DNA from: a virus
IMG/VR virus record: IMGVR_UViG_3300027762_000001
DNA: 64,000 nt
Direction: 5' to 3' (one strand)
In this document: positions 3,657 to 33,765 of the stretch, in pieces
Layout: each line of letters starts with the position of its first letter
Numbering within the stretch: position 1 is the first letter of the stretch
Notes under the pieces: generated by a model
What the model was told of the DNA's origin: nothing
Database searches by the model: none
The model's input: the letters and a program-made list of their open reading frames with translations, nothing else
Translations under genes and position numbers: made by a program

Positions 3657-4220
3657 ATGGGTACAAGAGGATGTTATGGGTTTTACAAAAATGGAGAGGA
3701 TAAGCTGACATACAATCACTATGATAGCTATCCAAATTACTTAGGAGTAGATGTAGTTGAATTTATTAGAGAAACAAGTATTGAAGAAATGAATGAGATT
3801 TTCGATAAAATAGTAATGATTGACGGTAGTTCTATTCCAACAAAAGAACAGATAGAAGAATGTAGTAAATTTTATAATGGTAGTGTTGGTGAGGGAACTC
3901 GTAAAGATTGGTATTGTTTACTAAGAAGTTCGCAAGGTGATTTAAAAGTATATAAAGAAAGTCTCAAATATATGATAGATGATAAAAAATTCATGGGAGA
4001 TAGTCTTTTTTGTGAATGGGCATATGTAATAAATTTGGATGATAAGCTTTTTGAAATTTATAGAGGTTTTCAAAAATCTTTAGTAGAAAATAGGTATAAA
4101 AAATATGTTCTTTTACCAGTTGATAATTACTATAATGTTAAGTTATTAAAAACCTATCCATTAGATGATATATCAGAAGATTGGATAAATGAAGTTGAAA
4201 AAATGGATAAAGAAGATTAA
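3657..4220 (+). CDS. Phage hypothetical protein (MGTRG...YNHYDSYP type)
   Basis: YNHYDSYP and CEWAYVINLD motifs recalled from phage hypotheticals. Confidence 0.7.
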   Translation: MGTRGCYGFYKNGEDKLTYNHYDSYPNYLGVDVVEFIRETSIEEMNEIFDKIVMIDGSSIPTKEQIEECSKFYNGSVGEGTRKDWYCLLRSSQGDLKVYKESLKYMIDDKKFMGDSLFCEWAYVINLDDKLFEIYRGFQKSLVENRYKKYVLLPVDNYYNVKLLKTYPLDDISEDWINEVEKMDKED

Positions 4221-4287
4221 AAAATATATAAAAAACTTATCAAAAATATATAAATAAGTGTTAAAATTATAGATGAGGTGATATTTT

Positions 4288-4572
4288 TTGAGAAAGAGAT
4301 TTAGATATAACTGTATTGATTGTCCATCTGTCCTAATAAAAGAATTAAATTTTATTAAAGATAATAAGAAAGAAATAAACTACAGAGCATTTCTAACTAA
4401 TATAGACAAGGTAAAATTTTCAGACATATGTGAAGATTTAGGATATGCACATCACTACACGAAAGGTATGATAATAAAAGATGACCCATACGTATCTTAT
4501 TATAAATGTAAATTACCTCATTCGACAGCGTATATTATGATTCACTCCGCCATAGAATATGTGTTTTATTAG
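4288..4572 (+). CDS. Phage hypothetical protein
   Basis: GAGGTG RBS, TTG start, C-terminal HSAIEYVF. Confidence 0.6.
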   Translation: MRKRFRYNCIDCPSVLIKELNFIKDNKKEINYRAFLTNIDKVKFSDICEDLGYAHHYTKGMIIKDDPYVSYYKCKLPHSTAYIMIHSAIEYVFY

Positions 4573-4589
4573 AGAGGAGATGATAATTT

Positions 4590-5093
4590 TTGAATTTAGA
4601 AATAAGGCGCGTCTCAAGAAAAGACGCTGTCCCGAGAAAATTAACTAAAGATATTATTTGCCCAGTTTGCAAGGGAGACGAAAAATCGGATGAATATCGA
4701 ATGATTAAAGTTCAAATTTTAAACATGGTAAATAATATAAATTCAAGCAGCGCCACTTCATCTGACACAAAAGATAAAGTAAAAGAATATGTTGAAAATG
4801 TTTATGATAGCAGTAAAAATGCAGAACATATCCATAAAGTAGTATTAAACTTAGGAGAAAAGATGGGCCTTTCTGAAGATTGGGATAAATGCTCTCACTG
4901 CAAAAACCCCAACTTAATAGCAAGACTTAATAAGGAGAAAGGGTATCAGATTTTTTATGTGAAAGAAGATAATGGCTTTATAGTATTTGAAGAGGCTATA
5001 TCACCAACTATGACTTATGTGACAGATTTAAAGGATTGGTACTTTGACACATTTTCAAAGTGGGCACCCGATATATTTAAAGAGGAGGATTAA
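4590..5093 (+). CDS. Hypothetical protein, two CxxC pairs
   Basis: CPVCKG and CSHCK. Confidence 0.6.
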   Translation: MNLEIRRVSRKDAVPRKLTKDIICPVCKGDEKSDEYRMIKVQILNMVNNINSSSATSSDTKDKVKEYVENVYDSSKNAEHIHKVVLNLGEKMGLSEDWDKCSHCKNPNLIARLNKEKGYQIFYVKEDNGFIVFEEAISPTMTYVTDLKDWYFDTFSKWAPDIFKEED

Positions 5094-5098
5094 TTTTT

Positions 5099-5350
5099 GT
5101 GGACATAAAAGGAAGGATGCAAGGTGAGCTAGAAGTAAAAAGATTTTATTTAGACGGACTTAAAGTAACTTATAGATGTCCTAAATGTTATTTAGTACAC
5201 AATTATGATGACTATCTTAGTAATCCACCTATAAATAAAGTCTTTGATATGGAGTTTTATTGTGATAATTGTGAGCATGAGTGGACTGAGGCTGCAAAGC
5301 TTAGTATAAACTTAATTAAAAAACCGAATTTAAATAAGAAGGAGAATTAA
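5099..5350 (+). CDS. Small Zn-ribbon protein
   Basis: CPKC...CDNCEHEW. Confidence 0.65.
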   Translation: MDIKGRMQGELEVKRFYLDGLKVTYRCPKCYLVHNYDDYLSNPPINKVFDMEFYCDNCEHEWTEAAKLSINLIKKPNLNKKEN

Positions 5351-5352
5351 AA

Positions 5353-6240
5353 ATGAGTCATTTTGTAGTAGGTATTATCCATCATGAGGAGCAAGATATA
5401 GAGGATTTATTGACGCCTTATGATTGTGAAAAAGAAGTTGAAAGGTATATAGATTATACAAAAGAAGAGTTAATAGAAAAAGGTAAAAAAGAAATTGAGA
5501 ATTATAAAAATAGTAATTATAAAGAATATTTAGAAGACCCTAAAGCGTACAAGGAAACAAGATGCATTAAAGATGATAATGAGCATATTAATTATTTAGA
5601 AAATGAATTTCCTAAGATGCTAAAGTGGTCTGACGAAGAGATTTATAAAAATCAACTAAAGTATTATAAAGAAGAAGATATAGGCGAAGATGGAAATGTT
5701 TATTCAAACTATAATCCAGATTCAAGATGGGATTGGTATCAAATTGGCGGAAGATGGTCCGGGTTATTAAAATTAAAGCCAGGCGCTACAACAGGTAAAT
5801 TAGGTGATAGAAGTTGGACAAATAAAGATTTAGATATTCCAAAAGATAGAGCTGACATAGCCCAAATAAAAGATATAGACTTTTCTGTAAGTGAAGATTC
5901 ATACAAAAAGTTAATCAGATTTTGGGAATTAAAAGTTGAAGGTCAAGAGCCTCAAAATGAAGAAGAAAAAGAGATGGTTGAATCTAGTCATCTAAATAAG
6001 GAGTTTTATAAAGATAGATACAAAACTAAAGAAGAGTATGCAAAATGTGCATCTTCATTTAGTACTTTTGCTGTAATAACTCCAGATGCGGAGTGGCATG
6101 AAAAAGGTGAGATGGGATGGTGGGGTTTATCATCTGAAAATCATGAAGATGCATTTAACTGGGAAAAAGATTGGTATGATGTATTTATAAAAAATACAGA
6201 TGAAGAACTATATTTAACTATAGTAGATTGTCACATTTAA
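5353..6240 (+). CDS. Phage hypothetical protein (NPxxxWDWYxIGGRW type)
   Basis: MSHF start, [16 protein letters not shown]-terminal VDCHI. Confidence 0.75.
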
Positions 6241-6254
6241 AGGAGCTGATAAAT

Positions 6255-6917
6255 TTGAGCAGAATATCATGGGACACATACTTTATGAAGATTGCAGAGT
6301 TTGCAAAAGAGCGTTCAACCTGTATAAGAAGACAAGTTGGAGCTATTATTGTAAGAGATAACAGAATACTTTCAACAGGGTACAATGGAGCACCATCTGG
6401 TTGCTCTCATTGTACTAAGGATGGATGCATGAGAGAGAAGTTAAATATTCCATCAGGAGAGAGACATGAAATATGTTGCGCTGTTCATGCAGAGCAAAAT
6501 GCAATAGCTCAAGCAGCATATAGTGGAACATCTGTAAAAGATGCAACAATGTATATTACATGTCAGCCATGCTCTATTTGTAGTAAACTTATGATTAATG
6601 CAGGGATTAAAAAAATAGTATTTGAAGGAGATTATCCTGATGATTTCTCATTAAATTTTTTGAAGGAAGCAGGAGTTAGAGTCGTAAAGCTAGACGATGA
6701 AAAGAAAACAATAGGGGAGTGGTGTCAAAAATTAGATATGGACATATTTACTTATGAGGGATTCAATAGAGAAGACCTTGATTTATTTGAAAGAAAATTC
6801 AGTAGAGCAGATTTTCTAAAAAATGTTGCACGTTGCTCAATGATACATGTTACACCAAATATATATAATGAACTTGAAAATTATAAATTATCAAAAGGGG
6901 GACATTTAAATGATTAA
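6255..6917 (+). CDS. dCMP deaminase with C-terminal extension
   Basis: [26 protein letters not shown]; AGGAG RBS favours TTG at 6255 (ORF open from 6228). Confidence 0.9.
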
Positions 6918-14863: not shown

Positions 14864-16180
14864 ATGAAAGTGGTGATAATATTCATGAAAAAAATATTGA
14901 AGATTAATATAAAAAACTTTCAATCGCACAAAGATTCAGTAATTAGCTTTGATAATTTTACTGTTATTAATGGTCCAACTGATAATGGTAAGTCAGCAAT
15001 AATAAGGGCTATTAAATGGTGTCTTTACAACAGCCCCGACGGAACTAATTTTATAAGACATGGAGAGAATACTGCAGATGTTACTGTTTACTTTAGCGAT
15101 GGAACAAGTGTAAAAAGAGTAAAGGGTAAAAAAGAAAATTATTATATACTAGCTCATCCTGATGGCAAAGAGTTACAATTAGAAAATTTTGATAGAGGTC
15201 CTGTATCTGAGGTGGTAAATTTTCACAAAATGTACGAGGTTGATTTGTTTGGAAAAAGGCAAGCCTTAAATATCTGTGACCAACTATCTGCTCCATTTTT
15301 CTTGTCCAACTCTCCAATAGAAAGAGCTCAAATGGTAGGTCAGATAGGAAACACTGAAGTTATAGACTTTGCTATAACTGATACTTTATCTGAGATAAGA
15401 GATAAGAAGTCATTACTTAAAGTCTACCACAGAGATTTACTAGAAGTAGACTCAGAGCTTCAAAACTATACAGATTTGCATTTGATGGAAGAGGATTTAA
15501 ATAAAACTAAGCTTATAAAAGAAGATACTTTAAAACTTGTTTTTGAGCTAAATAAACTAATTAAAAATAAAAACTCCCTATTTACACTTTATGAAAATAA
15601 GAAAAAATATGAAGAGATATTAAAGAGTGAAAGTGATATAAACAGTGGACTAGAAACTATAAATGATATTTTAAATGAATATCATGAATATCAAAAAGTT
15701 TTGAGAAATAATTCAATTTTAAAATGTAATATTGAGAGAAAGGAAAATCTTGAAGAAGTAGTAAGTATAGCTTCTCATAAGGAAATAGAAGATTTTATAA
15801 ATGGATTAAGTGTAATAGATGAAAAAATTAAATACTCAAAATCTTTAAAAGTATTAAAATTAAATATTGAAAATCAAGAAAAGACTATAAGTAAAACAAA
15901 GGCAATAATAGAAGGGGAAGATGATATTAAAAATACTATAGATAAATTAGATATTTGTAAGGAAAAAATATCTTGTCTAATTAATTTAAGTTATAAAGGA
16001 GAGTTATTTAAAAAGGCTATTGATAGAAAATTAAAGGGTCGAAAAGTTATAGAGGATTTAGATGTTCAATATAATGATGCATTAGAAGAGTACAAAGAGA
16101 AGCTTTTACAAAATCCTCATTGCCCATTATGTATGTCAAAAATAAATAAAGAAAAAATTAATAATATAAAAATAGTATAA
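14864..16180 (+). CDS. sbcC: SbcC/Rad50-like ATPase, N-terminal half
   Basis: IKNFQSH, Walker A GPTDNGKS, coiled coil, C-terminal CPLC zinc hook; no Walker B. Confidence 0.85.
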   Translation: MKVVIIFMKKILKINIKNFQSHKDSVISFDNFTVINGPTDNGKSAIIRAIKWCLYNSPDGTNFIRHGENTADVTVYFSDGTSVKRVKGKKENYYILAHPDGKELQLENFDRGPVSEVVNFHKMYEVDLFGKRQALNICDQLSAPFFLSNSPIERAQMVGQIGNTEVIDFAITDTLSEIRDKKSLLKVYHRDLLEVDSELQNYTDLHLMEEDLNKTKLIKEDTLKLVFELNKLIKNKNSLFTLYENKKKYEEILKSESDINSGLETINDILNEYHEYQKVLRNNSILKCNIERKENLEEVVSIASHKEIEDFINGLSVIDEKIKYSKSLKVLKLNIENQEKTISKTKAIIEGEDDIKNTIDKLDICKEKISCLINLSYKGELFKKAIDRKLKGRKVIEDLDVQYNDALEEYKEKLLQNPHCPLCMSKINKEKINNIKIV

Positions 16181-20752: not shown

Positions 20753-23700
20753 TTGAGCTTTGTTCATTTGCATGTTCATACAGAATACTCTTTAGCAGAT
20801 TCATCACTTAGAGTGAGAGAATTAGCTAAAAGAACTAAAGAGATGGGTATGGATTCTATTGCAATTACAGACCACGGATTTTTATATGGAGTAGTAGATT
20901 TTTATAAGGCATGTAAAAAAGAAGGTGTAAAGCCTATCATAGGAATTGAAACTTATGTTGCTCCAAGGTCTAATTTAATGAAAATGGCAAAACTAGATGA
21001 TGCAAATTACCATCTAGTTTTGTTAGCTAAAAATAATGATGGTTATAATAATTTAATTAAGATTGCATCAGATGCTGCAATAAATGGATTTTATTATAAA
21101 CCAAGAACTGACAAACATAAGCTAAGAGAATTTAGTAATGGTTTAATTGCTCTCAGCGCATGCATAGGTGGAGAGGTTCAAAAGTTTTTATTAAAATCCT
21201 TAGAAGATAGTATTCATTATGAAACAGCTAAAGATATAGCACTTCAATATAATGATATATTTGGTCAAGGTAATTTTTATTTAGAACTTCAAGACCATAA
21301 GATGGAAGAGCAGATACAGGTAAATAGACTACTTTTAAAACTAAGCAGGGAAACTAATATACCTTTGGTTTGCACTAATGACTGTCATTATCTAGAAAGA
21401 AAAGATAGTAAGGCTCATGATATATTAATGGCAATACAGGCTAAGACAACAATTAAAGATACTAAAAGAAAAATGTATCCATCTGATGAATTTTATTTAA
21501 AAAGTCCAGAAGAAATGAAAAATATATTTGGACACATTCCAGAAGCAATAGAAAATACTATCAGGATTTCTGATATGTGTAATGTTGAGTTTGAATTTGG
21601 AAAAACTAAACTTCCTCACTTCGATGTTCCAGAAGGCTACACTCCAAAATCTTATTTAGAAGATTTAGTTTATAAAGGTGCTAAAGAATTATATGGAGAA
21701 ATAACAGATGAGATAAATGAGAGGATTCAATTTGAATTATCAACTGTAGAAAGAATGAACTACATTGATTATTTCTTAATAGTATGGGATTTTGTAAGAT
21801 ATGCCCGAGAAAGGAAAATATTGGTAGGCCCAGGCAGGGGTTCTGCGGCAGGCTCTATAATGGTTTATTGTTTATATATAACAAGGATAGACCCACTTAA
21901 ATATAATTTACTATTTGAAAGATTTTTAGATCCAAGTAGAATAAGCCTTCCTGACGTTGACATTGATTACCAAGATGACCGAAGAAATGAAGTAATAGAA
22001 TATATTGTAAATAAATATGGTAGAGATAGCATTTGTCAGATAGCAACATTTGGCACTATGGCGGCAAGAGCTGCTATAAGAGCAGTAGGTAGAGCATTAG
22101 ATTACTCTTATGCAAAGCAAGACTCTACAGCTAAAATGATACCGATGGAGCAAGGAATAACGATAGAGAAGGCATTATTTGTCAATCTTGATTTAAAGCA
22201 AAAGTATGATACAGAAGAAGATACAAGAATACTTTTAGATAATGCTATCGCTTTAGAAGGTCTTCCTCTTTATATTGGAACTCATGCTGCTGGAGTTTTG
22301 ATAACAGACAGTAAAGGTGTTAATGCTCATGTGCCAACTTGTATGACTGACAAAGGAATTGTAAGTCAGTTTACAATGAATATCTTAGAAGAGTTAGGCC
22401 TTTTAAAAATGGACTTTCTAGGCCTTAAAACTTTAACAGTTATAAGTGATACTATAAAGTGGGTTAAGAAGAATCATGATGTAGATATAAGCTTAGATGA
22501 ACTCTATAAGTGTCAAGATGATAAACCTCTACAAGTTATAGGCGAAGGTCACACTTTAGGTTTATTTCAAATTGAGGGACAAGGTATGACTGAGTTTATG
22601 ATAGAATTAAAGCCAAAAACCCTTGATGAATTAATTGCCGGTATATCACTTTATAGACCGGGTCCAATGGATTTGATTCCTAGCTTCCTCTCCAATAGAA
22701 GAAATGAACAGAGAATAGAGTATGACTTTGAAGAATTAAGACCTATCTTAAAAGATACTTATGGAATACTTTGCTATCAGGAACAATGTATGAGAACTGT
22801 AATAGCTTTAGCAGGTTATCAAAAACATCACTCTGATAGTTTCAGAAAAGCTATAAGTAAAAAGAAAGCTGACTTAATAGAACTTCATAGAAACTATTTT
22901 ATTTACGGAAGAGAAGAAAGATATGAAGATGGCAAGCTAATCGAGGATGCTATTCCTGGTGGAATTAAAATGGGTCATAATGAAAGTGATTTAAGGAAGT
23001 TATATGATAAGATGGAAGAATTTGGTAAATATGCCTTTAATAAAAGCCATGCAGCAGCTTATGCAGTTATAGGTTATTGTACAGCTTGGCTTAAGTATTA
23101 TTATCCTGTTGAGTTTATGGCATCTTTAATTTATTCTATAAATAAAGATAAGGATAAAGTTTCTCAATATATAAATCATTGTAGAAAGGACTTGGGTATT
23201 AAAATCATTCCTCCAAACATAAATACAGGAAGTTTAGAATTTGTTCCATATAAAGATAAGATGATATCATTTTCACTTCTTGTTAAAAATTGCAAGGAAG
23301 AAACTATAAAATCAATTTGTGAGTTAAAAGATAAGATAGAAAATATGTTTGACTTTTTTAAAGTGCATATGAATAATATTGATAAAAGCTCTTTAGAAGC
23401 CTTGATATCAATTGGTGCATTTGAAGACTTTAATATTAAAAGGTCTCAATATTTAGCCGCAGTAGAGGATATAGTAGATAAACTATCTAAGGCAAAAAAT
23501 TCAAAGAAAAGATTACAAGAGCCAAAGACAACAAATAGAAAGCCTAAAGATTTTATATTTGAAGAAAAATTTCCTTTAGATGAATTAATTCCTGATATTA
23601 ATGAGTTCCCTAAAGATGTTATATTAAGACTTGAGAAAAAATATTTAGGAGTATATTTATCTGGTCATCCACTAGATAAATATATGTATGCAGTCTCAAA

Positions 23701-24268
23701 CATATCTAACTTTAAAGCCTCTGACTTAGATTATATTGTAGATGAAGAAACAGGTGCTATAATGATGTCATCTAATAAAATATCTAATTATCAGCAGGTT
23801 AAATTTATAGCTGTATTAAATAATATTAAAGTTTTAACTACAAAGAAAAATCAATTGATGTGTACGGCAGAAGTCGAAGATTTAACAGGATCTACTAAGC
23901 TTTTAATATTTCCTGACCTTTACGCTAATATAAGTTCTAAATTAGAGAAAAACGAAGTATATGAAATAACAGGAAGATTAAGCATAAAATCTGACGAAGC
24001 TCCCTGTGTTATGTGTGAAGACGTGGAGGTAATATCTAAAGCATTAGTAAAAAGAATAATTGTAACAGTAAATAATGGTATAGAAGCAAGAGATGTTATT
24101 GACTACATTAAAGAATCTGACTCATTAGGATATACTCCAGTTTATATTTTATATGACTCTTTTAAAGTGTTATTGAAAAAGGAGTATTGGGTTGATTTGG
24201 ATTTCTTTAGAGATTACCTAAGTAAGAATCCTTTAAACTGTGAGGATATACAAATTTATGAATGGTGA
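20753..24268 (+). CDS. dnaE: DNA polymerase III alpha subunit (DnaE type)
   Basis: HLHVHTEYS PHP domain, GPGRGSAAGS, PDVDID, KMDFLGL, YAFNKSHAAAY, C-terminal OB fold. Confidence 0.97.
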   Translation: MSFVHLHVHTEYSLADSSLRVRELAKRTKEMGMDSIAITDHGFLYGVVDFYKACKKEGVKPIIGIETYVAPRSNLMKMAKLDDANYHLVLLAKNNDGYNNLIKIASDAAINGFYYKPRTDKHKLREFSNGLIALSACIGGEVQKFLLKSLEDSIHYETAKDIALQYNDIFGQGNFYLELQDHKMEEQIQVNRLLLKLSRETNIPLVCTNDCHYLERKDSKAHDILMAIQAKTTIKDTKRKMYPSDEFYLKSPEEMKNIFGHIPEAIENTIRISDMCNVEFEFGKTKLPHFDVPEGYTPKSYLEDLVYKGAKELYGEITDEINERIQFELSTVERMNYIDYFLIVWDFVRYARERKILVGPGRGSAAGSIMVYCLYITRIDPLKYNLLFERFLDPSRISLPDVDIDYQDDRRNEVIEYIVNKYGRDSICQIATFGTMAARAAIRAVGRALDYSYAKQDSTAKMIPMEQGITIEKALFVNLDLKQKYDTEEDTRILLDNAIALEGLPLYIGTHAAGVLITDSKGVNAHVPTCMTDKGIVSQFTMNILEELGLLKMDFLGLKTLTVISDTIKWVKKNHDVDISLDELYKCQDDKPLQVIGEGHTLGLFQIEGQGMTEFMIELKPKTLDELIAGISLYRPGPMDLIPSFLSNRRNEQRIEYDFEELRPILKDTYGILCYQEQCMRTVIALAGYQKHHSDSFRKAISKKKADLIELHRNYFIYGREERYEDGKLIEDAIPGGIKMGHNESDLRKLYDKMEEFGKYAFNKSHAAAYAVIGYCTAWLKYYYPVEFMASLIYSINKDKDKVSQYINHCRKDLGIKIIPPNINTGSLEFVPYKDKMISFSLLVKNCKEETIKSICELKDKIENMFDFFKVHMNNIDKSSLEALISIGAFEDFNIKRSQYLAAVEDIVDKLSKAKNSKKRLQEPKTTNRKPKDFIFEEKFPLDELIPDINEFPKDVILRLEKKYLGVYLSGHPLDKYMYAVSNISNFKASDLDYIVDEETGAIMMSSNKISNYQQVKFIAVLNNIKVLTTKKNQLMCTAEVEDLTGSTKLLIFPDLYANISSKLEKNEVYEITGRLSIKSDEAPCVMCEDVEVISKALVKRIIVTVNNGIEARDVIDYIKESDSLGYTPVYILYDSFKVLLKKEYWVDLDFFRDYLSKNPLNCEDIQIYEW

Positions 24269-24621: not shown

Positions 24622-25359
24622 ATGAATAGTGTGAAAGCAAGTTTTTTTATTGAAACAAGAGTTGATGGAAGTGAAATTTTAAAACAAATTGAAACAGCGG
24701 GTAGAATATGTTATAAAAGTGAGGATAAAATAACAGCTACTTCGGCTAAAAGATTTGTTAAAAGTATTATTGAAAAAGGACATGAGTCCGTATTAGAGCA
24801 TGCAAATGTTACAGTTAGAGTTATATGTGATAGGGGAGTATCTCATGAGATAGTAAGACATAGGATGGCAAGTTATTCACAAGAAAGCACAAGATATTGT
24901 AATTATCATAAGGATAAATTTAATAATGAATTAAATTTTGTCACCCCTTGTTTTTGGTCAAGATATGATGATGATAATGATAAGCTTGTTATATGGCTTG
25001 AGACGATGTCATATATCGAAACACAGTATATGAAGCTAATTGAGTTAGGAGCCAAACCAGAAGAAGCTAGAGCGGTACTACCTAACTCCTTAAAGACTGA
25101 GTTATCTATGACTATGAATTTAAGAGAATGGAGACACTTTTTTAAACTTAGAACAGCAGTAGGTGCTCATCCTCAAATGAGAGAAATAACAATACCAATG
25201 CTTGAAGATTTCAAAAGATTAATACCAATAATATTTGATGATATCGAGGTGATTAGAGATGGTCAGCGTCCAAGAACTAGAGAAGATATTAGAGAAAATG
25301 AATCATCAATTTATAGTGAGGACAACGGAGAAGAAGCAACTTCTAAAGAAGAAGAATGA
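24622..25359 (+). CDS. thyX: FAD-dependent thymidylate synthase
   Basis: GHESVLEH, HEIVRHRMASYSQESTRY, MNLREWRHFFKLR. Confidence 0.96.
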   Translation: MNSVKASFFIETRVDGSEILKQIETAGRICYKSEDKITATSAKRFVKSIIEKGHESVLEHANVTVRVICDRGVSHEIVRHRMASYSQESTRYCNYHKDKFNNELNFVTPCFWSRYDDDNDKLVIWLETMSYIETQYMKLIELGAKPEEARAVLPNSLKTELSMTMNLREWRHFFKLRTAVGAHPQMREITIPMLEDFKRLIPIIFDDIEVIRDGQRPRTREDIRENESSIYSEDNGEEATSKEEE

Positions 25360-25894
25360 GTTAGAGGAAAGTATTAATGATATTGACATTGAAAGTTTAG
25401 AAAAATGTAATTTCTTACTTCAAAAAATGTCAGAAAAGCAAAGGGAAAAAGCTTGCATTAAACTACAGGAGCTTTGCACTTATGCTCTTCAATATTCATT
25501 ATCAGATAACTATGAATCAATTATTGAAATTACAAAGTATAGAAATAAGCCAGCTGTAAATTTATATATTAAAAAAGTAGGCTCTGATATGAAAACTTCT
25601 CCTGAAGATAGTAATGGTGGAGGTATAGTTGACATAATAAGTATGGCACTTAGATTTGTAACAATGCAAATTTTAGAGCCACAAATAGATGGACCTATAA
25701 TACTAGATGAGCCGTATAAGATGGTAAGTGAAGAACATATACCAATGATATCTAATTTTATAAAGAATTTATCAATTGATTTTGGAAGGCAAGTAATTTT
25801 ATGTACACATAATAAGTTTTTATCTCAAGTTGCAGATAAGCAAATATTTGTAACAATGGGTGAAAACAATAACAGCATAGTTGGGGAGGAATAA
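25259..25894 (+). CDS. SbcC/Rad50-like ATPase, C-terminal half
   Basis: Coiled coil, signature-like SNGGG, Walker B IILDEP, H-loop LCTHN; no Walker A. Confidence 0.8.
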   Translation: MVSVQELEKILEKMNHQFIVRTTEKKQLLKKKNELEESINDIDIESLEKCNFLLQKMSEKQREKACIKLQELCTYALQYSLSDNYESIIEITKYRNKPAVNLYIKKVGSDMKTSPEDSNGGGIVDIISMALRFVTMQILEPQIDGPIILDEPYKMVSEEHIPMISNFIKNLSIDFGRQVILCTHNKFLSQVADKQIFVTMGENNNSIVGEE

Positions 25895-26760: not shown

Positions 26761-26777
26761 TAGCATAAGTAATAAAA
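26761..26777 (+). promoter_or_regulatory. Recurrent motif copy 3
   Basis: TAGCATAAGTAATAAAA. Confidence 0.55.
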
Positions 26778-26960
26778 GAGGGCGACCCACCTGGAAAGGG
26801 TAGCGCCCAGGTAGTAATAAATAACTATAGGTTGTAAGGAATCAATCGCGCTACCGGTGTACGAAGGTATACTGCCGACGACAGGATAATGAACCCTGCC
26901 AGTTGGACATTTTTTGGAGCTAACACCATGTAGCCCTACAGGGGCTATATGGTGTTTTAT
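26778..26960 (+). ncRNA. Unassigned GC-rich structured RNA
   Basis: Several GC-rich stems between a promoter-like motif and a terminator; no credible ORF. Confidence 0.6.
26922..26960 (+). terminator. Intrinsic terminator
   Basis: AACACCATGTAGCCC/GGGCTATATGGTGTT stem followed by T-rich tract. Confidence 0.7.
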
Positions 26961-26975
26961 GTTTACCTTAAAAAA

Positions 26976-26992
26976 TAGCATAAGATATAAAA
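26976..26992 (+). promoter_or_regulatory. Recurrent motif copy 4
   Basis: TAGCATAAGATATAAAA. Confidence 0.55.
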
Positions 26993-27045
26993 GAAATAGT
27001 ATTTATATTTTTTAAAATAAAATTTTATGAAAGGGTGTTATTTTT

Positions 27046-28011
27046 ATGAACGAAAGATTACAAAGTATAATTGATTACACTAAAGATGCAAGTTTCAACT
27101 TTAACAAAGGAAACCATGAGTACCCAGGTCTTTTATTTAAGAGAAAGGAAACAGGAGTATCGATGTTAGCCATTTCAAAATGGTTTATCGCTGAAATGGA
27201 AAATACGGGCATTGAACCAGAAACTGAATTCTACAGTTTACATTATGGAAAATGGGTAAATCAGCATCCTTTTCCATGGAGTACAGATTATATGATAAGT
27301 GCATTTGATAGGTTTGAGATTATGGGTAAGTTCACTTTAAGGCTTAACAATGTTTTAAACCACATAATGCAGTTAGATAATTTTACTGAATGTAATGATG
27401 TGAAAGAAGAGTCAAGAATAATAATATCAAGATATCAACCAGAGGAAAATCGTCAAATTATTAGCTTTAAAGATATTGGTGGAATACTACAATATAAAAT
27501 TGATATACTTCCAAAGCCATTTGTAATTTCAAATAATTCTGCTATTCCTCCTCAATACATAAAACCAGATACAAAGTATGTATGCGAGGTAATAGAAGAA
27601 AGAGAAGACGCTTATATTGTAAGCTGTTTGGAGCCATATGGAATAATAAGATTAGGTTTAAAGCATTCGCCTAAGGGATTTATACCTAGCGATATGGATG
27701 GAATAAATAGATTAAAAGGTATTCCTTTTAATTTAATACATTGCACAGATTTATTGGAGCCAAGAGACATAGATTTTCAGCCTATACATTTAAACTGTCT
27801 AATGTTCTTTCATTTAGCTAAAATGTTTACTATTTTAAATACAGAATTTATAGATGTATATTTTGGACCAGACCCAGGCAAAATAGATAGAGTTACTGGT
27901 AAAAAGCAGTTAGCTATAGTTATGCACAATGTTAAAAAATCAAAAGATGAGCCAACAATAAGAATTGCAATGCAAAGCTTAAATCAAGACTATGGTCCTC
28001 AAAGGAGTTAA
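27046..28011 (+). CDS. Putative divergent sliding clamp (DnaN-like fold)
   Basis: N-terminal ...YPGLLFKRKETGVSMLAISKWFIA and C-terminal IHLNCLMFFHLAKMF...IDVYF...IRIAMQSL follow beta-clamp strand/helix patterns; 321 aa, between dnaE and primase. Confidence 0.45.
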   Translation: MNERLQSIIDYTKDASFNFNKGNHEYPGLLFKRKETGVSMLAISKWFIAEMENTGIEPETEFYSLHYGKWVNQHPFPWSTDYMISAFDRFEIMGKFTLRLNNVLNHIMQLDNFTECNDVKEESRIIISRYQPEENRQIISFKDIGGILQYKIDILPKPFVISNNSAIPPQYIKPDTKYVCEVIEEREDAYIVSCLEPYGIIRLGLKHSPKGFIPSDMDGINRLKGIPFNLIHCTDLLEPRDIDFQPIHLNCLMFFHLAKMFTILNTEFIDVYFGPDPGKIDRVTGKKQLAIVMHNVKKSKDEPTIRIAMQSLNQDYGPQRS

Positions 28012-28014
28012 GGG

Positions 28015-28458
28015 GTGGTAATTTTGAATAGTATTGAAATTTTCAAAAATCGAATAAATAAGACTTACTCAAAAGTAACTTATGAATATTTACTCGACAA
28101 TGTTCTTTATTCAAAAAAGAATCCTGTAAAGCTAAGAGAAAGAGTTAGAGAACTTTATTATGATTTATTAGAATTCTCTGACACTCCAGATATTTATAGG
28201 ATGGCTGAAATGATAGACGATGAAAATATATTTATAATTATAGAATTTTATAAAGATAAATATACAGAAGAGGAGATAGACAATGTAATAGCTAGTTATG
28301 ACCATAATGTTGCTTGCATGTTAGATGAGTGGATTTATGAAATACTTCAAGATTGGGGATATTCTTGTTCTGGAGACCCTTTTTATATTTTTGAAAATAA
28401 AAATAATATAAATTTAAATCTTGTAGCTCAGAATGAATTGTTTGAAGGTTTTGATTAG
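28015..28458 (+). CDS. Acidic protein with C-terminal QNELFE motif (1 of 4)
   Basis: Ends LVAQNELFEGFD. Confidence 0.7.
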   Translation: MVILNSIEIFKNRINKTYSKVTYEYLLDNVLYSKKNPVKLRERVRELYYDLLEFSDTPDIYRMAEMIDDENIFIIIEFYKDKYTEEEIDNVIASYDHNVACMLDEWIYEILQDWGYSCSGDPFYIFENKNNINLNLVAQNELFEGFD

Positions 28459-28472
28459 AAAGTGGTGGTTTT

Positions 28473-29060
28473 ATGAATATAGTAAAGCAAGAAACTGGTT
28501 TAAAAAAATATAGCAATTATCAAGAACACATAAATGCAATTCTGGAAAACATTATACTTTTAGATAGCCCAGAAGATAAAAAGCTTGTAATAGATAAATA
28601 TTATGAGCTTTTGCATTCTAAAGAGAAATTGCCAGATTTTTCAGATTTACAAGAATATATTTTATATCATAATGAAGATATGTTCTGGGAAGCAGCAAAT
28701 ATAACATTCGCAAATGAGTATGATGGGCCTGATTTATTTAAAGATGAGTATGATGTTGATTCAACTATAGATGATATATCTTGGCACTACATGGAATGGA
28801 TGGGATATTATCACTATGACATAGTTGCAAGGTTAGAGCACATATTAAGAGAAGAACGTCTTTCAGTAGCATTCACTGTTAATGATGAAATTTTTGAAAG
28901 TGAAAAATACTATGACCCTTGGCTTTATGGTGATGTAACTTTCTTAATGTCTAGTTGTCAGAATGAATTATTTGAAGGATTCATAGATGATGGGTGTGCA
29001 TCATATGGCAGTTATTTAATATATTACGGTTCATATGAGGAAGGAGGTAAATCATGTTAG
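28473..29060 (+). CDS. Acidic protein with QNELFE motif (2 of 4)
   Basis: SSCQNELFEGFID. Confidence 0.7.
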   Translation: MNIVKQETGLKKYSNYQEHINAILENIILLDSPEDKKLVIDKYYELLHSKEKLPDFSDLQEYILYHNEDMFWEAANITFANEYDGPDLFKDEYDVDSTIDDISWHYMEWMGYYHYDIVARLEHILREERLSVAFTVNDEIFESEKYYDPWLYGDVTFLMSSCQNELFEGFIDDGCASYGSYLIYYGSYEEGGKSC

Positions 29061-29680
29061 ATATTGCAGTTAGAAATAATAGCTTAAATATTATTAATGA
29101 TTCTTGGCAAGATGTAATTAGCAGTTTATTATTGGAGCTTATAATTTATAATCCGGCACCTTGTTATGAGGAAGAAAATAATAAAAAAATAATAGATGCA
29201 TATTATAGAGCATTTGATATTCATGGAGGTAAAGTCGATATAGAAGATGTATTAAACGAAATATATGAATATAATTATGATATATTTATAAAAGTATCTG
29301 AGATTGAGGCAAGTTATGACCCAAACTTTTTTACTAGAAAAGATGATCATTTATATGAATCTTTAAACGACAAAATAATAGATAGTGCCGAAGGTTGGAA
29401 TGAATGTTATTACTACGATAACTTCTTATACTTAGATGATTATGTAAAAGCTTTATTCTACCAAAATAGATTCTTCTATCTAAATCCATATAGCTCATCA
29501 GACTATATATATTTTAATGATGAAACAATAGTTTTTAATAATTGTCAAAATGAATTATTTGAAGATTTTGATAAAAATTATCTTGAGACACCCCACATTA
29601 GAAATGTAGATGATTTACCTCAAAGTATTGAAATTCAAGATTATCTTGATAACTATCATAATTCATATGATGTAACATAA
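29054..29680 (+). CDS. Acidic protein with QNELFE motif (3 of 4)
   Basis: NNCQNELFEDFD. Confidence 0.7.
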   Translation: MLDIAVRNNSLNIINDSWQDVISSLLLELIIYNPAPCYEEENNKKIIDAYYRAFDIHGGKVDIEDVLNEIYEYNYDIFIKVSEIEASYDPNFFTRKDDHLYESLNDKIIDSAEGWNECYYYDNFLYLDDYVKALFYQNRFFYLNPYSSSDYIYFNDETIVFNNCQNELFEDFDKNYLETPHIRNVDDLPQSIEIQDYLDNYHNSYDVT

Positions 29681-29695
29681 AGGAGTTGATTAAAA

Positions 29696-30034
29696 ATGAA
29701 TAGTTTAGCAGTATATAATGAAAGCTCCTTATTATTTCATGAGTCATTCTACCCTTCCGATTTAGAGTACTATATTTTAAAAGCATATTCTGATGCAGTT
29801 CATGGAGCATATGAAGTGCCAGATTTCTTTGCTATTAATGAATTTTTTGATTATCATTTAAATTTTGCAAATAGGGATGTTTTTAATGTAGGCTCTTTCG
29901 GCTTGGATGTAAATAAATATGAAATGACTTTTGAATTAATAGAAGAAACCCTAGATCTTATGAGAGCATCATTTGTAAATATGTTAGGAGAAGAATTAAA
30001 TAATTGTCAGAATGAACTATTTGAGGAGGAGTAA
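29696..30034 (+). CDS. Acidic protein with C-terminal QNELFE motif (4 of 4)
   Basis: Ends NNCQNELFEEE. Confidence 0.7.
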   Translation: MNSLAVYNESSLLFHESFYPSDLEYYILKAYSDAVHGAYEVPDFFAINEFFDYHLNFANRDVFNVGSFGLDVNKYEMTFELIEETLDLMRASFVNMLGEELNNCQNELFEEE

Positions 30035-30037
30035 ATT

Positions 30038-30352
30038 ATGAATGAAATTGTAGACAAGTTTATTATGAAAGCGTACTTTACAGTTCTTAGGAACTCTCAA
30101 TTCCCACCTGTACCATCAGTTCTTTATATGTTCAAAGATATTGTGGATAGAGATGCTGCAGATATAATATATCCAGATATTGATTTTAAAACAGTAAATG
30201 CTGAAGTTATTTTCGATGTACTTACAAGATACAGGTGTGCTCACAGTAATTTTGGTAATATATATTTTGACGCAAGAAATGTATTATTCTCAATTAATCC
30301 TTGCGACATAAATAAATTATTATTGCCTGAAAAAACTTCTATTAAACAATAA
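30038..30352 (+). CDS. Hypothetical protein
   Basis: GGAGGAG RBS. Confidence 0.6.
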   Translation: MNEIVDKFIMKAYFTVLRNSQFPPVPSVLYMFKDIVDRDAADIIYPDIDFKTVNAEVIFDVLTRYRCAHSNFGNIYFDARNVLFSINPCDINKLLLPEKTSIKQ

Positions 30353-30525
30353 GAGAGATTTTCTTTAAATTAGTATTTATTTATTAAAAAAAATGTGTGT
30401 TATAATAATTTTATATTTTCTTAAAAGGGGCAATTAAAAAAAGAATAAAAACTTTAAATACTAATGAACATAGTACTTTTGCAAGAATTACTATGTTTTA
30501 TTTACCATTTTTTTGGAGGTCATAT

Positions 30526-33500
30526 ATGAATAAACTAGAATGGTATGAACAAATTAATGACACTATAATTGGCGATATTGAAGAGTTTTATAGCAGTTTT
30601 TATTCAGGACAAGAAGTAAGTAAAGTTGGTTCAAGCTATAGACTTGAGCCATGTCCTATGTGCGGACACAGTAAATGTTGCACTGTTGGAGTTGCAGTTC
30701 ATTGTTTTTCATGTAATTGGTCAGGAACACATATCAATGCTTGGTATGATTATGCAACTACAGTTCTCGGAATATCATTGTTTGATGCCATTCAAAAATT
30801 ATCAAAATTTGCAAAGCTTCCATTTCCAAGTGGGTCCAAAGAAGATTTTGAGAGGTATCAAAAATTTCAAAGAAAGCAGGCAATTCTAAAGTCAGCAGAG
30901 TCATTCTATCACGATCAGCTTCTAAACTGTAATGAGAAATTTAAATTCAATGAGCAAGAATTAACTCCACTAAATTACCTGTTAACTATAAGAAAAAGAA
31001 AGATAGAATCATTAAAAGAATTTAAAGTTGGATTCTCATACAATTATAAACAATTAAGTAAAGACTTAAGGTCATCAGATTATTCAGATGATGAAATAAA
31101 AGAAGCTAAGATATGGGTACCTGAGGGATTATTTGTATTTTTCTATAAGCATCCAACAACAAAAAATATTATAAGGGTAAATACAAAAAATCCTTTTGAA
31201 ATTAAAAATGTGGTTAGTGATGGACTTAAAAGAATAGAAACTGACGAAGTAATACAAGGTTTTTCAGTGGGAGAAAAAGCAATTTTATTCTCACCTAGAT
31301 TCTCATTTAAAAAGCCATATGCAATAGTAGAAGGTGAACATGACATTATAAGTCTTACTGAGAATGGATGCGATAATGTATGTTGTATAGGTGGTAACTT
31401 AAAAAATGAAGCATATAACATATTAAATAAAACTGAAAGCACTATATATGCTTTATTTGATAATGATAAGAAGGGTAGAGAATATGAGGTTAATCTAAAT
31501 AAATTATTTCCTGAAAAAGATATAAGAAGTATAAGATTGCCTGATGAATATAAAGACCCTGATGAATATTTTAAAGCTAATCCTGAACCTATGCCTTGGA
31601 CAGAAATAATTAAAGATGCAAAAATTTTAGATACTGAAGATTTCAAATGTCATCACAATAATATAGAATTTTGGGTGTGTGAAAATAGATTTAAAAAATT
31701 AACATTTGAAATAAAGGCTAAAACAGATAAGAACTTTTTAGTGGGGCAAGTAAACTTATATGCTGACGGAAAACTTATCGACAGAGAAGATAATGTAGCT
31801 CTTATAAAATGTAAAACCAAAATGAAACCCATGAACTTTATATTAAGTGATAAAATAGATGAATATTTCAACAGTGACTTAGATAATAAGGCCATTGAGG
31901 AGCTTATAGATATTTACTGGTATTCATCTAGAAAACAAACTATTGAATCTATAATAGCAAAAAGAATATTTGAGTCTAACAATGATGAAGAAATAATAAA
32001 TAGTATTAAAGTTAAAATGAAAAGCTATGGAGTTGATAATAACGATATAGTAGACTCAATTTTAAAAGAAGTAAATGATATGCAAAATAAGTCTATTGCT
32101 AGATATTCAAATATTCCTAAAATAAAAATAAGTCAATATTTCAATGTGCGAAATAATGATGCATACTTTTATTTCAATTATGTTAAAGATGATGGCGGTG
32201 CAAGAAGAAAACTTCCATTCTTAATAAGAAATGATAAGGCCTTAATAAGACTTGATTTATTAAGAAGGAAAGATGAGCAATGTCTAATTTTAATTGATAA
32301 TAAGTACGAACTTCCTTTAGAGGTACCTAATGCATTATTTGATTTTGATGATTGTTCATTAACTCAAGATGTTGTGGAAGACTATATGGAAGGTGTTATT
32401 CCCAAAGATGAATTAGAGCCTGGATATCTCATAAAACAAATAGAAAATTATGTAAAGAAATTTTATTGTGCTGAAAACGATAATGTATATAAGATTTTGG
32501 CACTTTATTGTTTTATGACTTATTTTTATGAATTATTTGGACAGATACCATATCTTCATTTACAAGGATTAAAAGGCTCAGGTAAATCAGTTTTAGATTC
32601 AATATTAAAAATGTTTTGTTTTAATGCTAAGCTAACTGTAAACATGTCAGATGCAGCACTTTTTAGAATGGCTTCAATTGAGGGTGGAACTATAATATTA
32701 GATGAAGTTGAAAACTTAACTGTAAAGTCTAAAGTTAATGATTCTATAATGGCATCAGTTTTAAAAGGTGGATACACAAGAGGCTTTCCTGTTTACAGAG
32801 TTAATCTTGAAAAAGGTATAAATGATAAATTTGATTGTTTCTGCCCAAAGATAATATCTAATATAGAAGGATTAGAGTCTGTTATATGTGACAGATTTAT
32901 AATGATTAACTCATATAAGATAAAATCCTTGACTAACGAGACAAGGCTTGAAGACCCAAAGAATTACTATGCAGAATATGCTGACAAAGTAAAAGCTGTA
33001 ACAGGCAGATGCTGCTTATCTGCTCTTGAGAATTTTCAAAAATTACATCAAATTTATAACTTAAATACCTTTGAAACATTAAACCCTAGACTTAGTCAGA
33101 TATTAACTCCTGTACTTGCAATTGCAAAAATGGCAGATGAAAAAGAGAGAATGCAAACTAAAAAATCAATGGGTGAATACGAGAGGGCCCTTATGGAGTT
33201 TTATGAAACTAATATACAAAGAGATAAGCGTATAGTGAGAAATGATACTGTAGATGGTATATTAGAAGATATAATCCCTATAATAGCAATGGAGTTATAT
33301 GGACTTATACCTGAAGCTAAAAGGGAATATACTGTCACTCAGCACCATAAGTATAAAGAGGCTATTTCGTTTAATAGAAAAGAAGGGTGGTTCGAACTTA
33401 ATATTCTTCATTTTAAATGTTTTATAGAGGAACATATGCCAGGAGATTCAGTGAATCCAAGAATGATTCCTAAGTGGGTTAAATCAGCTTTTAATATAAA

Positions 33501-33705
33501 GGAATCTGATATTAAAAGAAAAATGGTTACAATTGAAAATGAAGAACTATTAAAAGAATTTAAAGGTAACACTAAAACTAAAGTAAATGTTTATAGATTC
33601 TATTTTGACCAATATATCGGAAGTAATTTTTTAATTGATACTGAAGATGAAATTGAAGATGATACTGAGGGTGAAGCTAAATCTATAGATGATAAGTTAT
33701 TTTAA
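30526..33705 (+). CDS. DnaG-type primase (Zn finger plus TOPRIM) fused to a C-terminal P-loop NTPase/helicase
   Basis: CPMC...CFSC; IVEGEHD, FDNDKKG, KDPDE; Walker A GLKGSGKS, Walker B IILDEVE; GGAGG RBS before ATG 30526. Confidence 0.85.
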   Translation: MNKLEWYEQINDTIIGDIEEFYSSFYSGQEVSKVGSSYRLEPCPMCGHSKCCTVGVAVHCFSCNWSGTHINAWYDYATTVLGISLFDAIQKLSKFAKLPFPSGSKEDFERYQKFQRKQAILKSAESFYHDQLLNCNEKFKFNEQELTPLNYLLTIRKRKIESLKEFKVGFSYNYKQLSKDLRSSDYSDDEIKEAKIWVPEGLFVFFYKHPTTKNIIRVNTKNPFEIKNVVSDGLKRIETDEVIQGFSVGEKAILFSPRFSFKKPYAIVEGEHDIISLTENGCDNVCCIGGNLKNEAYNILNKTESTIYALFDNDKKGREYEVNLNKLFPEKDIRSIRLPDEYKDPDEYFKANPEPMPWTEIIKDAKILDTEDFKCHHNNIEFWVCENRFKKLTFEIKAKTDKNFLVGQVNLYADGKLIDREDNVALIKCKTKMKPMNFILSDKIDEYFNSDLDNKAIEELIDIYWYSSRKQTIESIIAKRIFESNNDEEIINSIKVKMKSYGVDNNDIVDSILKEVNDMQNKSIARYSNIPKIKISQYFNVRNNDAYFYFNYVKDDGGARRKLPFLIRNDKALIRLDLLRRKDEQCLILIDNKYELPLEVPNALFDFDDCSLTQDVVEDYMEGVIPKDELEPGYLIKQIENYVKKFYCAENDNVYKILALYCFMTYFYELFGQIPYLHLQGLKGSGKSVLDSILKMFCFNAKLTVNMSDAALFRMASIEGGTIILDEVENLTVKSKVNDSIMASVLKGGYTRGFPVYRVNLEKGINDKFDCFCPKIISNIEGLESVICDRFIMINSYKIKSLTNETRLEDPKNYYAEYADKVKAVTGRCCLSALENFQKLHQIYNLNTFETLNPRLSQILTPVLAIAKMADEKERMQTKKSMGEYERALMEFYETNIQRDKRIVRNDTVDGILEDIIPIIAMELYGLIPEAKREYTVTQHHKYKEAISFNRKEGWFELNILHFKCFIEEHMPGDSVNPRMIPKWVKSAFNIKESDIKRKMVTIENEELLKEFKGNTKTKVNVYRFYFDQYIGSNFLIDTEDEIEDDTEGEAKSIDDKLF

Positions 33706-33719
33706 AAAAAATCCAAATA

Positions 33720-33765
33720 TAGTATAAGTAATAAAAGCAGGTAAAGTATTTTTTTACTTGCTTAT
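33720..33765 (+). promoter_or_regulatory. Recurrent motif copy 5 plus hairpin
   Basis: TAGTATAAGTAATAAAA; AAGCAGGTAAA/TTTACTTGCTT. Confidence 0.55.

Follow-up and report, generated by a model that had tools for sequence, protein, structure and literature searches.

A stretch of viral DNA of 64,000 nucleotides (IMG/VR record IMGVR_UViG_3300027762_000001; hereafter the window) probably encodes a processivity module of the phage replisome, in which a divergent sliding clamp is combined with a dedicated family of clamp clients that would dock on it by QNELFE-type tails. This explanation is held with moderate confidence. The clamp-fold protein is 321 amino acids (aa) long and is encoded at 27046..28011 on the + strand, and five small paralogous open reading frames (ORFs) follow it at 28015-30352. 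The window spans bases 6475-70474 of a viral contig that is complete at 152,620 bp and carries direct terminal repeats, and the GC content was 30%.

The 321-aa ORF had been described as clamp-like in an earlier note on this DNA, which was made from the sequence alone, and this description was borne out by a structural model and by searches of three fold libraries (PDB, BFVD, and ESM Atlas). The AlphaFold2 (AF2) model built from a 44-sequence alignment reached a predicted local distance difference test (pLDDT) value of 94.5 and a predicted template modelling (pTM) score of 0.91; a 2-sequence alignment gave an unusable model (pLDDT 38.9). The hidden Markov model (HMM) search conducted with the 321-aa protein and its ortholog from the related locus L006 returned 52 cluster representatives; their lengths ranged from 177 to 422 aa, the majority being approximately 300-330 aa. 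Foldseek comparison of the model against the PDB revealed sliding clamps (DnaN, PCNA, and 9-1-1) as all of the top matches, with E values down to 7.5e-7 and a probability of 1.0. VIA-align, which is independent of Foldseek, aligned 197 residues to residues 130-367 of DnaN (3t0p_B), corresponding to domains II-III of the three-domain bacterial clamp, with a Z score of 14.8 and a root-mean-square deviation of 3.4. The DnaN matches received Z scores of 14-14.8, PCNA 13.2, T4 gp45 12.9, and UL44 12.3, and the top matches down to Z 7.6 were all clamps or viral clamp-fold processivity factors (model residues 1-316). Fold searches of BFVD and ESM Atlas likewise returned sliding clamps. The model demonstrated the repeated domains, with two helices packed on two beta-sheets, that characterize clamp domains. 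A small beta-barrel insert (residues ~134-198) sits at the interdomain linker, and its matches to S1/TRAM-type barrels (VIA-align Z 5.3-6.8) are suggestive only.

Pfam did not return any match for the 321-aa protein at E <= 0.1, the Pfam clamp models matched 0 of the 44 clamp family members, PF00712 was absent from the whole genome, and a profile search of PDB sequences found no clamp for the family. PHROGs, and likewise Pfam, gave nothing meaningful for the clamp, the five paralogs, and the L006 homologs. Since its membership is structural only, we class the protein as having a divergent clamp fold rather than as a DnaN. As modelled, it is a two-domain sliding-clamp fold that can be recognized only by structure.

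The five ORFs downstream of the clamp gene are encoded on the + strand. Paralog 1 (28015..28458; 147 aa, isoelectric point (pI) 4.3) ends in AQNELFEGFD, with the motif DNA at 28429-28446. Paralog 2 (28473..29060; 195 aa, pI 4.25) carries CQNELFEGF (28959-28976) followed by a 25-aa Tyr/Gly-rich tail, and paralog 3 (29054..29680; 208 aa, pI 4.05) carries CQNELFEDF (29546-29563) followed by a 36-aa tail. Paralog 4 (29696..30034; 112 aa, pI 4.05) ends in CQNELFEEE (30008-30025), while paralog 5 (30038..30352; 104 aa, pI 5.7) has a degenerate ARNVLFS from residue 80 (~30275-30292). The four QNELFE copies reported in the earlier note could be confirmed: the degenerate Q-N-E-L-F-E DNA pattern had exactly 4 matches in the window, all on the + strand (28429, 28959, 29546, and 30008), compared to 0 expected from 100 shuffles, and these are the only copies in the entire 152,620-bp genome. 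The four ORFs bearing them are acidic, as had been stated, with pI values of 4.05-4.34, net charges of -15 to -29, and an F/Y/W content of 15.6-17.9%. Such a composition is compatible with DNA mimicry, which, like the anti-defence cargo suggested earlier, is speculation.

The same note had regarded the four ORFs as unrelated and had missed the ORF at 30038-30352. All five in fact align along their whole length as paralogs, having in common an N-terminal AYYxxL...PD block and the C-terminal motif, and BLASTP connected the 195-aa with the 208-aa protein (E = 4e-12) and the 147-aa with the 208-aa protein (E = 6e-5). The best matches of each window paralog were found at the same array position in other phages and not in its own genome, for instance L016.1 for the first (3e-28) and L005.2 for the fourth (6e-39), which indicates that the duplications are old. 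Orthologs of paralog 1 were L016.1, L007.1, L010.1, and L013.1; the best matches of paralog 2 were L016.2, L007.2, and L010.2, and that of paralog 3 was L016.3. Paralog 4 had the orthologs L005.2 (56% identity), L007.5, L016.5, L010.5, and L013.5. The paralog 5 orthologs L016.6, L013.6, and L010.6 bear QN motifs, and the one in L005 (64% identity) reads ARNELFENF. Going by these comparisons, the five ORFs are an old tandem paralog family with conserved positional orthologs, and not the set of interchangeable effectors that had been proposed earlier. The bodies of the paralogs retain only ~14-29% identity while the motif stays. Pfam and PHROGs assigned no family to these bodies, and an ESM Atlas look-up of the 208-aa paralog yielded no usable feature match (Atlas model pLDDT 0.35).

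Related phages supplied ten additional loci, collected through clamp-family contigs and through the primase, so that the comparison covers eleven loci including the window. Each locus contains 1-6 small, mostly acidic array genes. A clamp-family gene lies directly ahead of the array in every locus that retains its 5' neighbour, which is the result of the synteny check suggested in the earlier note. The relatives furthest from the window phage encode just one small protein, which ends in Q[PT]LLIEE, between two clamp-like genes. Sequence searches with the small array proteins revealed almost nothing outside this genome, and a word-indexed homolog search yielded few array-family members even when a profile of 31 sequences was used, which limits statements on the range of the family.

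Motifs were extracted from 44 array proteins of 11 genomes, positions 1, 2, and 4 being partly fixed by the extraction pattern. Position 1 was occupied by Q in 42 proteins and by R in 2, position 2 by N in 36, and position 4 by L (30), I (8), M (5), and in one case F. F was present at position 5 in 23 proteins (F or L in 25), positions 6-7 were mostly E, with E, G, or D at position 7, and position 8 was F in 12, W in 9, and M in 5 (F/W 21, F/W/M 26). The residue ahead of the motif was usually A, C, S, or P. In its general form the motif can be written [A/C/S]-Q-N-x-[L/I/M]-x-x-x-[F/W/M], and the window form is [A/C]-Q-N-E-L-F-E-x-F. An independent unsupervised MAFFT alignment of 31 array proteins, with a mean column identity of 16%, also revealed the Q as nearly invariant. 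It had been expected that homologs would conserve Q, L, and F; this held for Q (42/44) and for an L, I, or M at position 4 (43/44), but F at position 5 was retained in only 23/44. The codon differences within the window QNELFE copies are all synonymous (CAG/CAA, TTG/TTA/CTA, and GAA/GAG), as had been noticed before. Together with the near-invariant Q of the alignment and the motif counts in the 44 proteins, they indicate that QNELFE is under selection at the level of the peptide.

The flavour of the motif differs from genome to genome. It is QNELFE in the window, QNTLL in L005, QNILF in L016, QN[IL]MF in L013, QNxIN..W (e.g. QNIINEEW) in L010, QNSLx in L017, Q[QT]xL[FW] in L012, and Q[TP]LLIE and variants in L006, L018, and L021. 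The identity of motif positions 3-5 was 0.62 within genomes compared to 0.29 between genomes (p ~2e-4 by permutation of labels, phylogeny being ignored). Recent gene conversion is unlikely in the window since the motif codons differ synonymously, and the uniformity within genomes does not come from independent duplications since the window paralogs are positional orthologs. The simplest reading would be that all paralogs track one partner, which itself differs between phages.

Modelling of a QNELF tail together with the phage clamp had been proposed as a check, and was conducted for the clamp and the 147-aa paralog with their own alignments, in three runs and with three controls. The tail docked: the interface score (ipSAE) was 0.64, 0.66, and 0.60 in the three runs, while the best of the three controls, one of which paired the same partner with an unrelated 293-residue protein, received 0.00. 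The ipSAE mark used is reached by 58/80 solved complexes and by 2/110 mismatched pairs, and it is a rough guide here given the use of own alignments. The runs share at least 52% of their contacts, with a partner pLDDT of at least 43. On the partner side, the confident interface consisted of residues 134-147, i.e. the QNELFE tail; on the clamp side, it consisted of residues 43-48, 76-86, 250-253, 276-290, and the C-terminal 308-321. In the model, the contacts fall at the junction of the two clamp domains and along the C-terminal strand. Clamp residues 43-48 belong to a stretch which hhalign paired with the 'AY.T.G' strand in a second clamp-like family, described below. This clamp stretch resembles the 'ATDGHRL' strand of DnaN that lines subsite I, and the two may be equivalent. 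The residues of DnaN subsite I have been listed (PMC11139829). The model thus supports binding of the 147-aa paralog tail in the interdomain cleft of the phage clamp, but does not show it.

According to the proposed mechanism, the 321-aa protein would serve as the phage's own clamp for its DnaE, the alpha subunit of a bacterial-type DNA polymerase III (Pol III). The motif, lying on the flexible C-terminal stretch of each paralog, would most likely insert in the hydrophobic interdomain cleft of the clamp, adjacent to its C-terminal strand, which would be the same cleft as that used by a related DnaE peptide. Beta-clamp motifs, PIP boxes, and the acidic-hydrophobic tails of T4 gp43, gp33, and gp55 engage their respective clamps in a comparable manner. 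Each paralog would then be tethered to the clamp on replicating phage DNA or would compete with the polymerase for the cleft. The paralog bodies are preferably regarded as phage replisome regulators or adaptors rather than as host-directed toxins; since positional orthology is conserved, the paralogs are more likely to have distinct stable roles than to form a fast arms-race array.

DnaE is presumed to be the main client of the phage clamp. At the position of the internal clamp motif of E. coli alpha (QADMF), residues ~960-970 of the window DnaE (23630-23660) read KDFIFEEKF, and the same position reads KEFNFDERF in L016, KFSFEDRF in L013, and QTRLFEP in L006. All DnaE proteins of the main clade end in W. 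The primase encoded downstream of the array ends in ...LF in both the window phage (33697-33705) and L006 (13205-13213), L1069 and F1070 being invariant between the two at an overall identity of 42%. This end may be a further docking tail for the clamp or the polymerase.

A second clamp-like gene is present 3' of the array in seven relatives. It encodes 253-283 aa in L006 (9025-9876), L010 (11025-11795), and L013 (11033-11794), and 230-248 aa in L016 (7233-7925), L017 (5918-6634), L018 (6129-6860), and L021 (5472-6218), giving a range of 230-283 aa. It lies directly before the primase in 5 loci, while two to three ORFs (103-188 aa) intervene in L018 and L021. The language-model features of the ESM Atlas labelled it 'putative DNA polymerase III subunit beta' (0.94, 183 shared features), profile-profile comparison using hhalign aligned it to the N-terminus of the 321-aa family with a probability of 68%, and it bears a DnaN-like 'LCG..F....AY.T.G' segment. 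No second clamp-like gene was detected in the genome of the window phage by tblastn and HMM. The relatives may build a mixed clamp from two different chains.

Several observations weigh against a clamp with dedicated clients. The passing score of the docking model may come from the memory of many solved clamp-peptide complexes and would then express likeness rather than binding, and the paralog's own fold is uncertain in the complex model (pLDDT 43-71). The loci represent few lineages that are mutually related, and the permutation test takes no account of phylogeny. In L017, the motif retains Q-N-x-L only, most members having no hydrophobic residue at position 5 and none an aromatic at position 8, so that the pocket-filling residues are not universal. 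The window DnaE does not carry the QN motif of the paralogs. Finally, searches for a clamp loader with PF13177 and PF00004 returned no candidate. In herpesvirus-type clamps, the ring and the loader are both dispensable.

A wider version of the same explanation is considered unlikely. It holds that one or two clamp-fold proteins, together with the array, make up a hub that works without a loader, has not been recognised before, and occurs in a clade of ~150-kb DnaE phages. Each ancient paralog would be a distinct adaptor, employing the shared and evolving docking peptide to hand the clamp to replication, transcription by the phage's own RNA polymerase (the role of gp33 and gp55 in T4), DNA modification, or counter-defence, and the single small protein between two clamp-like genes in the furthest relatives would be the ancestral core.

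Also considered unlikely is a rival in which the tails all bind some other common partner (for example DnaE, the primase-helicase, the phage RNA polymerase, or the relatives' second clamp-like protein), the modelled docking being artefactual. Acidic tails ending in aromatics make other replisome contacts, as seen for the T7 gp2.5 and gp4 tails and for the SSB tail, and the memory effect mentioned above could have produced the docking. The window phage also has no second clamp-like gene, and the motif of its fifth paralog has decayed. However, all three controls remained at 0.00, including the one with the same partner and an unrelated protein; the modelled interface consists of exactly the motif and the canonical clamp cleft; and gene order ties the array to the first clamp gene in all the lineages seen.

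Targeting of the host beta clamp, whereby the tails would occupy the cleft of host DnaN and either shut off host replication and repair or borrow the clamp, is judged rather improbable, and it is compatible with the preferred explanation of a phage clamp and its clients. QNELF fits Q-x-x-[L/M]-[F/L] and so resembles QADMF, the internal motif of the E. coli alpha subunit; substitutions are tolerated at position 2 (PMC11139829). Moreover, the phage polymerase is a bacterial-type DnaE, and since the PF13177 and PF00004 searches recognised no clamp loader in the phage, host replication parts may be used. Nevertheless, the canonical position 2 is aliphatic, whereas N occurs there in 36/44 array proteins, and the array is always a neighbour of the clamp gene that the phage itself encodes. 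From one bacterial species to another, the pocket of the beta clamp is conserved and accepts the same ligands (PMC11139829), yet the motif shifts as a block between phages (QNIINEEW, QNSLx, and QTLLIE); a phage-encoded partner therefore fits this drift better than the host clamp.

A processing or targeting signal, namely a prohead-protease or capsid-targeting tag or a degron on packaged or short-lived proteins, is very improbable. The motif has a likeness to a recurrent tag described for head proteins of this genome, ..[DN]E[LF][FY].EK.[AS], one copy of which reads TNELFIEKKS, but the array belongs to the replication operon, flanked by the DnaE and primase genes, and Q..L[FL]E occurs in the whole genome in the four array genes only. 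QNELFE as a head-protein K-x-A tag was ruled out, since none of the five paralogs has the EK.[A/S] that defines this tag. Least credible of all is a functionless leftover of recent duplication or gene conversion: tandem co-oriented genes favour conversion and motifs are homogeneous within genomes, but the motif codons differ at synonymous sites, the bodies have diverged as described while the motif stays, the closest relative of each paralog lies in another genome, and Q is retained across 11 genomes.

The replication block of the window is encoded on the + strand and begins with the DnaE-type Pol III alpha (20753..24268; Pfam PHP, DNA_pol3_alpha, finger, and HHH_6, E = 1e-88), followed by a ThyX-like ORF, an ATPase (phrog_15167), a 155-aa ORF, and a 49-aa ORF. 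It continues with a 300-nt structured spacer, the 321-aa ORF, the five small ORFs, and a 1070-aa Toprim primase-helicase-like protein (30493..33705; Toprim_2, E = 9e-13), which is the last gene of the unit. The motif TAG[CT]ATAAG[TA][AT]ATAAAAG was found in 5 copies on the + strand of the window (24552, 26761, 26976, 33720, and 34209) compared to 0.05 expected. All five copies are intergenic and ahead of genes, short matches to the motif core were also present in the intergenic DNA of L013, L014, L010, L011, and L006, and the motif is a candidate promoter of this phage group. The copy at 26976..26994 would open the clamp-array-primase unit. An intrinsic-terminator-like hairpin (26922-26956) lies just 5' of this copy and the next copy, at 33720, directly follows the stop codon of the primase gene. 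By this arrangement, a single transcription unit seems to run from the clamp gene through the array to the primase.

The region 26761-26966, just 5' of the clamp operon, consists of a promoter-like motif copy, a GC-rich (43% vs 30%) RNA of ~185 nt, and the intrinsic terminator at 26922-26956. The RNA had a minimum free energy of -74.2 kcal/mol (z -4.5 compared to shuffles) and no match in Rfam, and the region is a candidate phage small RNA. Gene content just 5' of the clamp varies among the phages: by Pfam tags, L010 has a radical-SAM gene (6177-6902) and L013 encodes a 692-aa DUF8224 protein (3972-6050), and the window phage has neither of these ahead of its clamp. The phrog_15167 ORF (25259-25894) represents the C-terminal half of an ABC/SMC-type ATPase (211 aa) and adjoins DnaE in all relatives, and a separate AAA_23 SbcC-like ORF is present at 14864-16180; neither looks like a clamp loader. 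No tRNA genes were present in the window. A megablast search of 10 kb against cultured phages gave no match and tblastn with the primase returned distant primases only, so that neither a cultured relative nor a host could be identified by these searches.

Sliding clamps are hubs of DNA replication, and to our knowledge the build-up and regulation of a phage clamp are known in detail almost only for T4. The present module would mean that an uncultured clade of large phages pairs a bacterial-type DnaE with a clamp too divergent for sequence methods. The clamp and its peptide appear to co-evolve; from such a pair a new docking specificity could be defined and the joint drift of pocket and motif followed, and the array proteins become candidate regulators or adaptors acting on the phage replisome. 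The approach could also help to annotate the 'missing' processivity factors of phages that encode a DnaE. If it is true that the paralog bodies recruit transcription or counter-defence functions, the T4 idea of the clamp as a mobile activator would extend to an unrelated phage group.

Among known systems, the clients of the bacterial beta clamp carry Q-phi-x-[L/M]-[F/L] or Q-phi-x-[L/M]-x-[F/L] motifs (PMC11139829), and the array motif is similar in beginning with Q, in placing L/M fourth and F fifth, and in lying frequently within a terminal tail. QNELF of the four window paralogs has the Q1, L/M4, and F/L5 of the beta-clamp motif, but N replaces the aliphatic residue at position 2, an extra conserved aromatic occurs at position 8, and the motif drifts between phages, whereas the motif and pocket of bacteria are conserved. 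The clamp itself differs from DnaN in having two domains per chain instead of three and no Pfam DnaN match. The PCNA-interacting peptide (PIP) box, Q-x-x-[L/I/M]-x-x-[F/Y]-[F/Y], likewise belongs to a two-domain protomer and shares Q1, the aliphatic position 4, and an aromatic position 8 (F/W in 21/44 here), although position 7 is acidic or small here rather than aromatic, F is the usual residue at position 5, and there is no sequence homology to PCNA. By these residue patterns, the array motif is PIP-like without being a PIP box, and it mixes features of both motifs while fitting neither exactly.

Divergent viral clamps are known (PMC3201878). The two-domain 'PolIII beta-like processivity factors' of Bacillus phages (BFVD A0A6G9L9F1; Foldseek TM 0.60 by target) and herpesvirus UL44/UL42 (UL44 Z 12.3) are, as here, short divergent viral clamp folds without a recognisable loader; the barrel insertion is a feature of the 321-aa family that differs from both. 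No adjacent array of docking-motif paralogs beside the Bacillus phage or other viral clamps was seen reported, no systematic search having been conducted. Twort Gp168 resembles the array proteins as a small phage protein whose partner, here modelled, is a sliding clamp. However, it has neither the QxxLF-type tail logic nor a sequence relation to them, and its target is the host clamp, while a phage clamp is indicated here. Gp168 is reported to sit in the channel through which DNA slides in the host beta clamp, rather than in the peptide cleft (PMC8565349; PDB 7evp), which weakens the analogy drawn in the earlier note.

Clamps with docking-motif clients are textbook systems, and no description was found of a conserved, dedicated array of paralogous clamp-docking proteins beside such a clamp. 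In T4, interchangeable hydrophobic-acidic C-termini of gp43, gp33, and gp55 bind gp45 (PMC2988020). The T4/RB69 system of gp45 with gp43, gp33, and gp55 (PMC2988020, PMC7892883) has a phage-encoded two-domain clamp as here, and gp45 matches the model with a Z score of 12.9. In contrast to T4, the clients here are 1-6 paralogs of a single family in a fixed array beside the clamp, the polymerase is DnaE and not family B, the clamp contains an inserted barrel, and no gp44/62-like loader was found with PF13177 and PF00004. Pfam and PHROGs gave no match to the gp45, gp33, or gp55 families, and the logic of the tails is all that is common with T4 gp33/gp55. By analogy, T4 would nevertheless be the closest functional precedent for the clamp-docking tails of this phage group.

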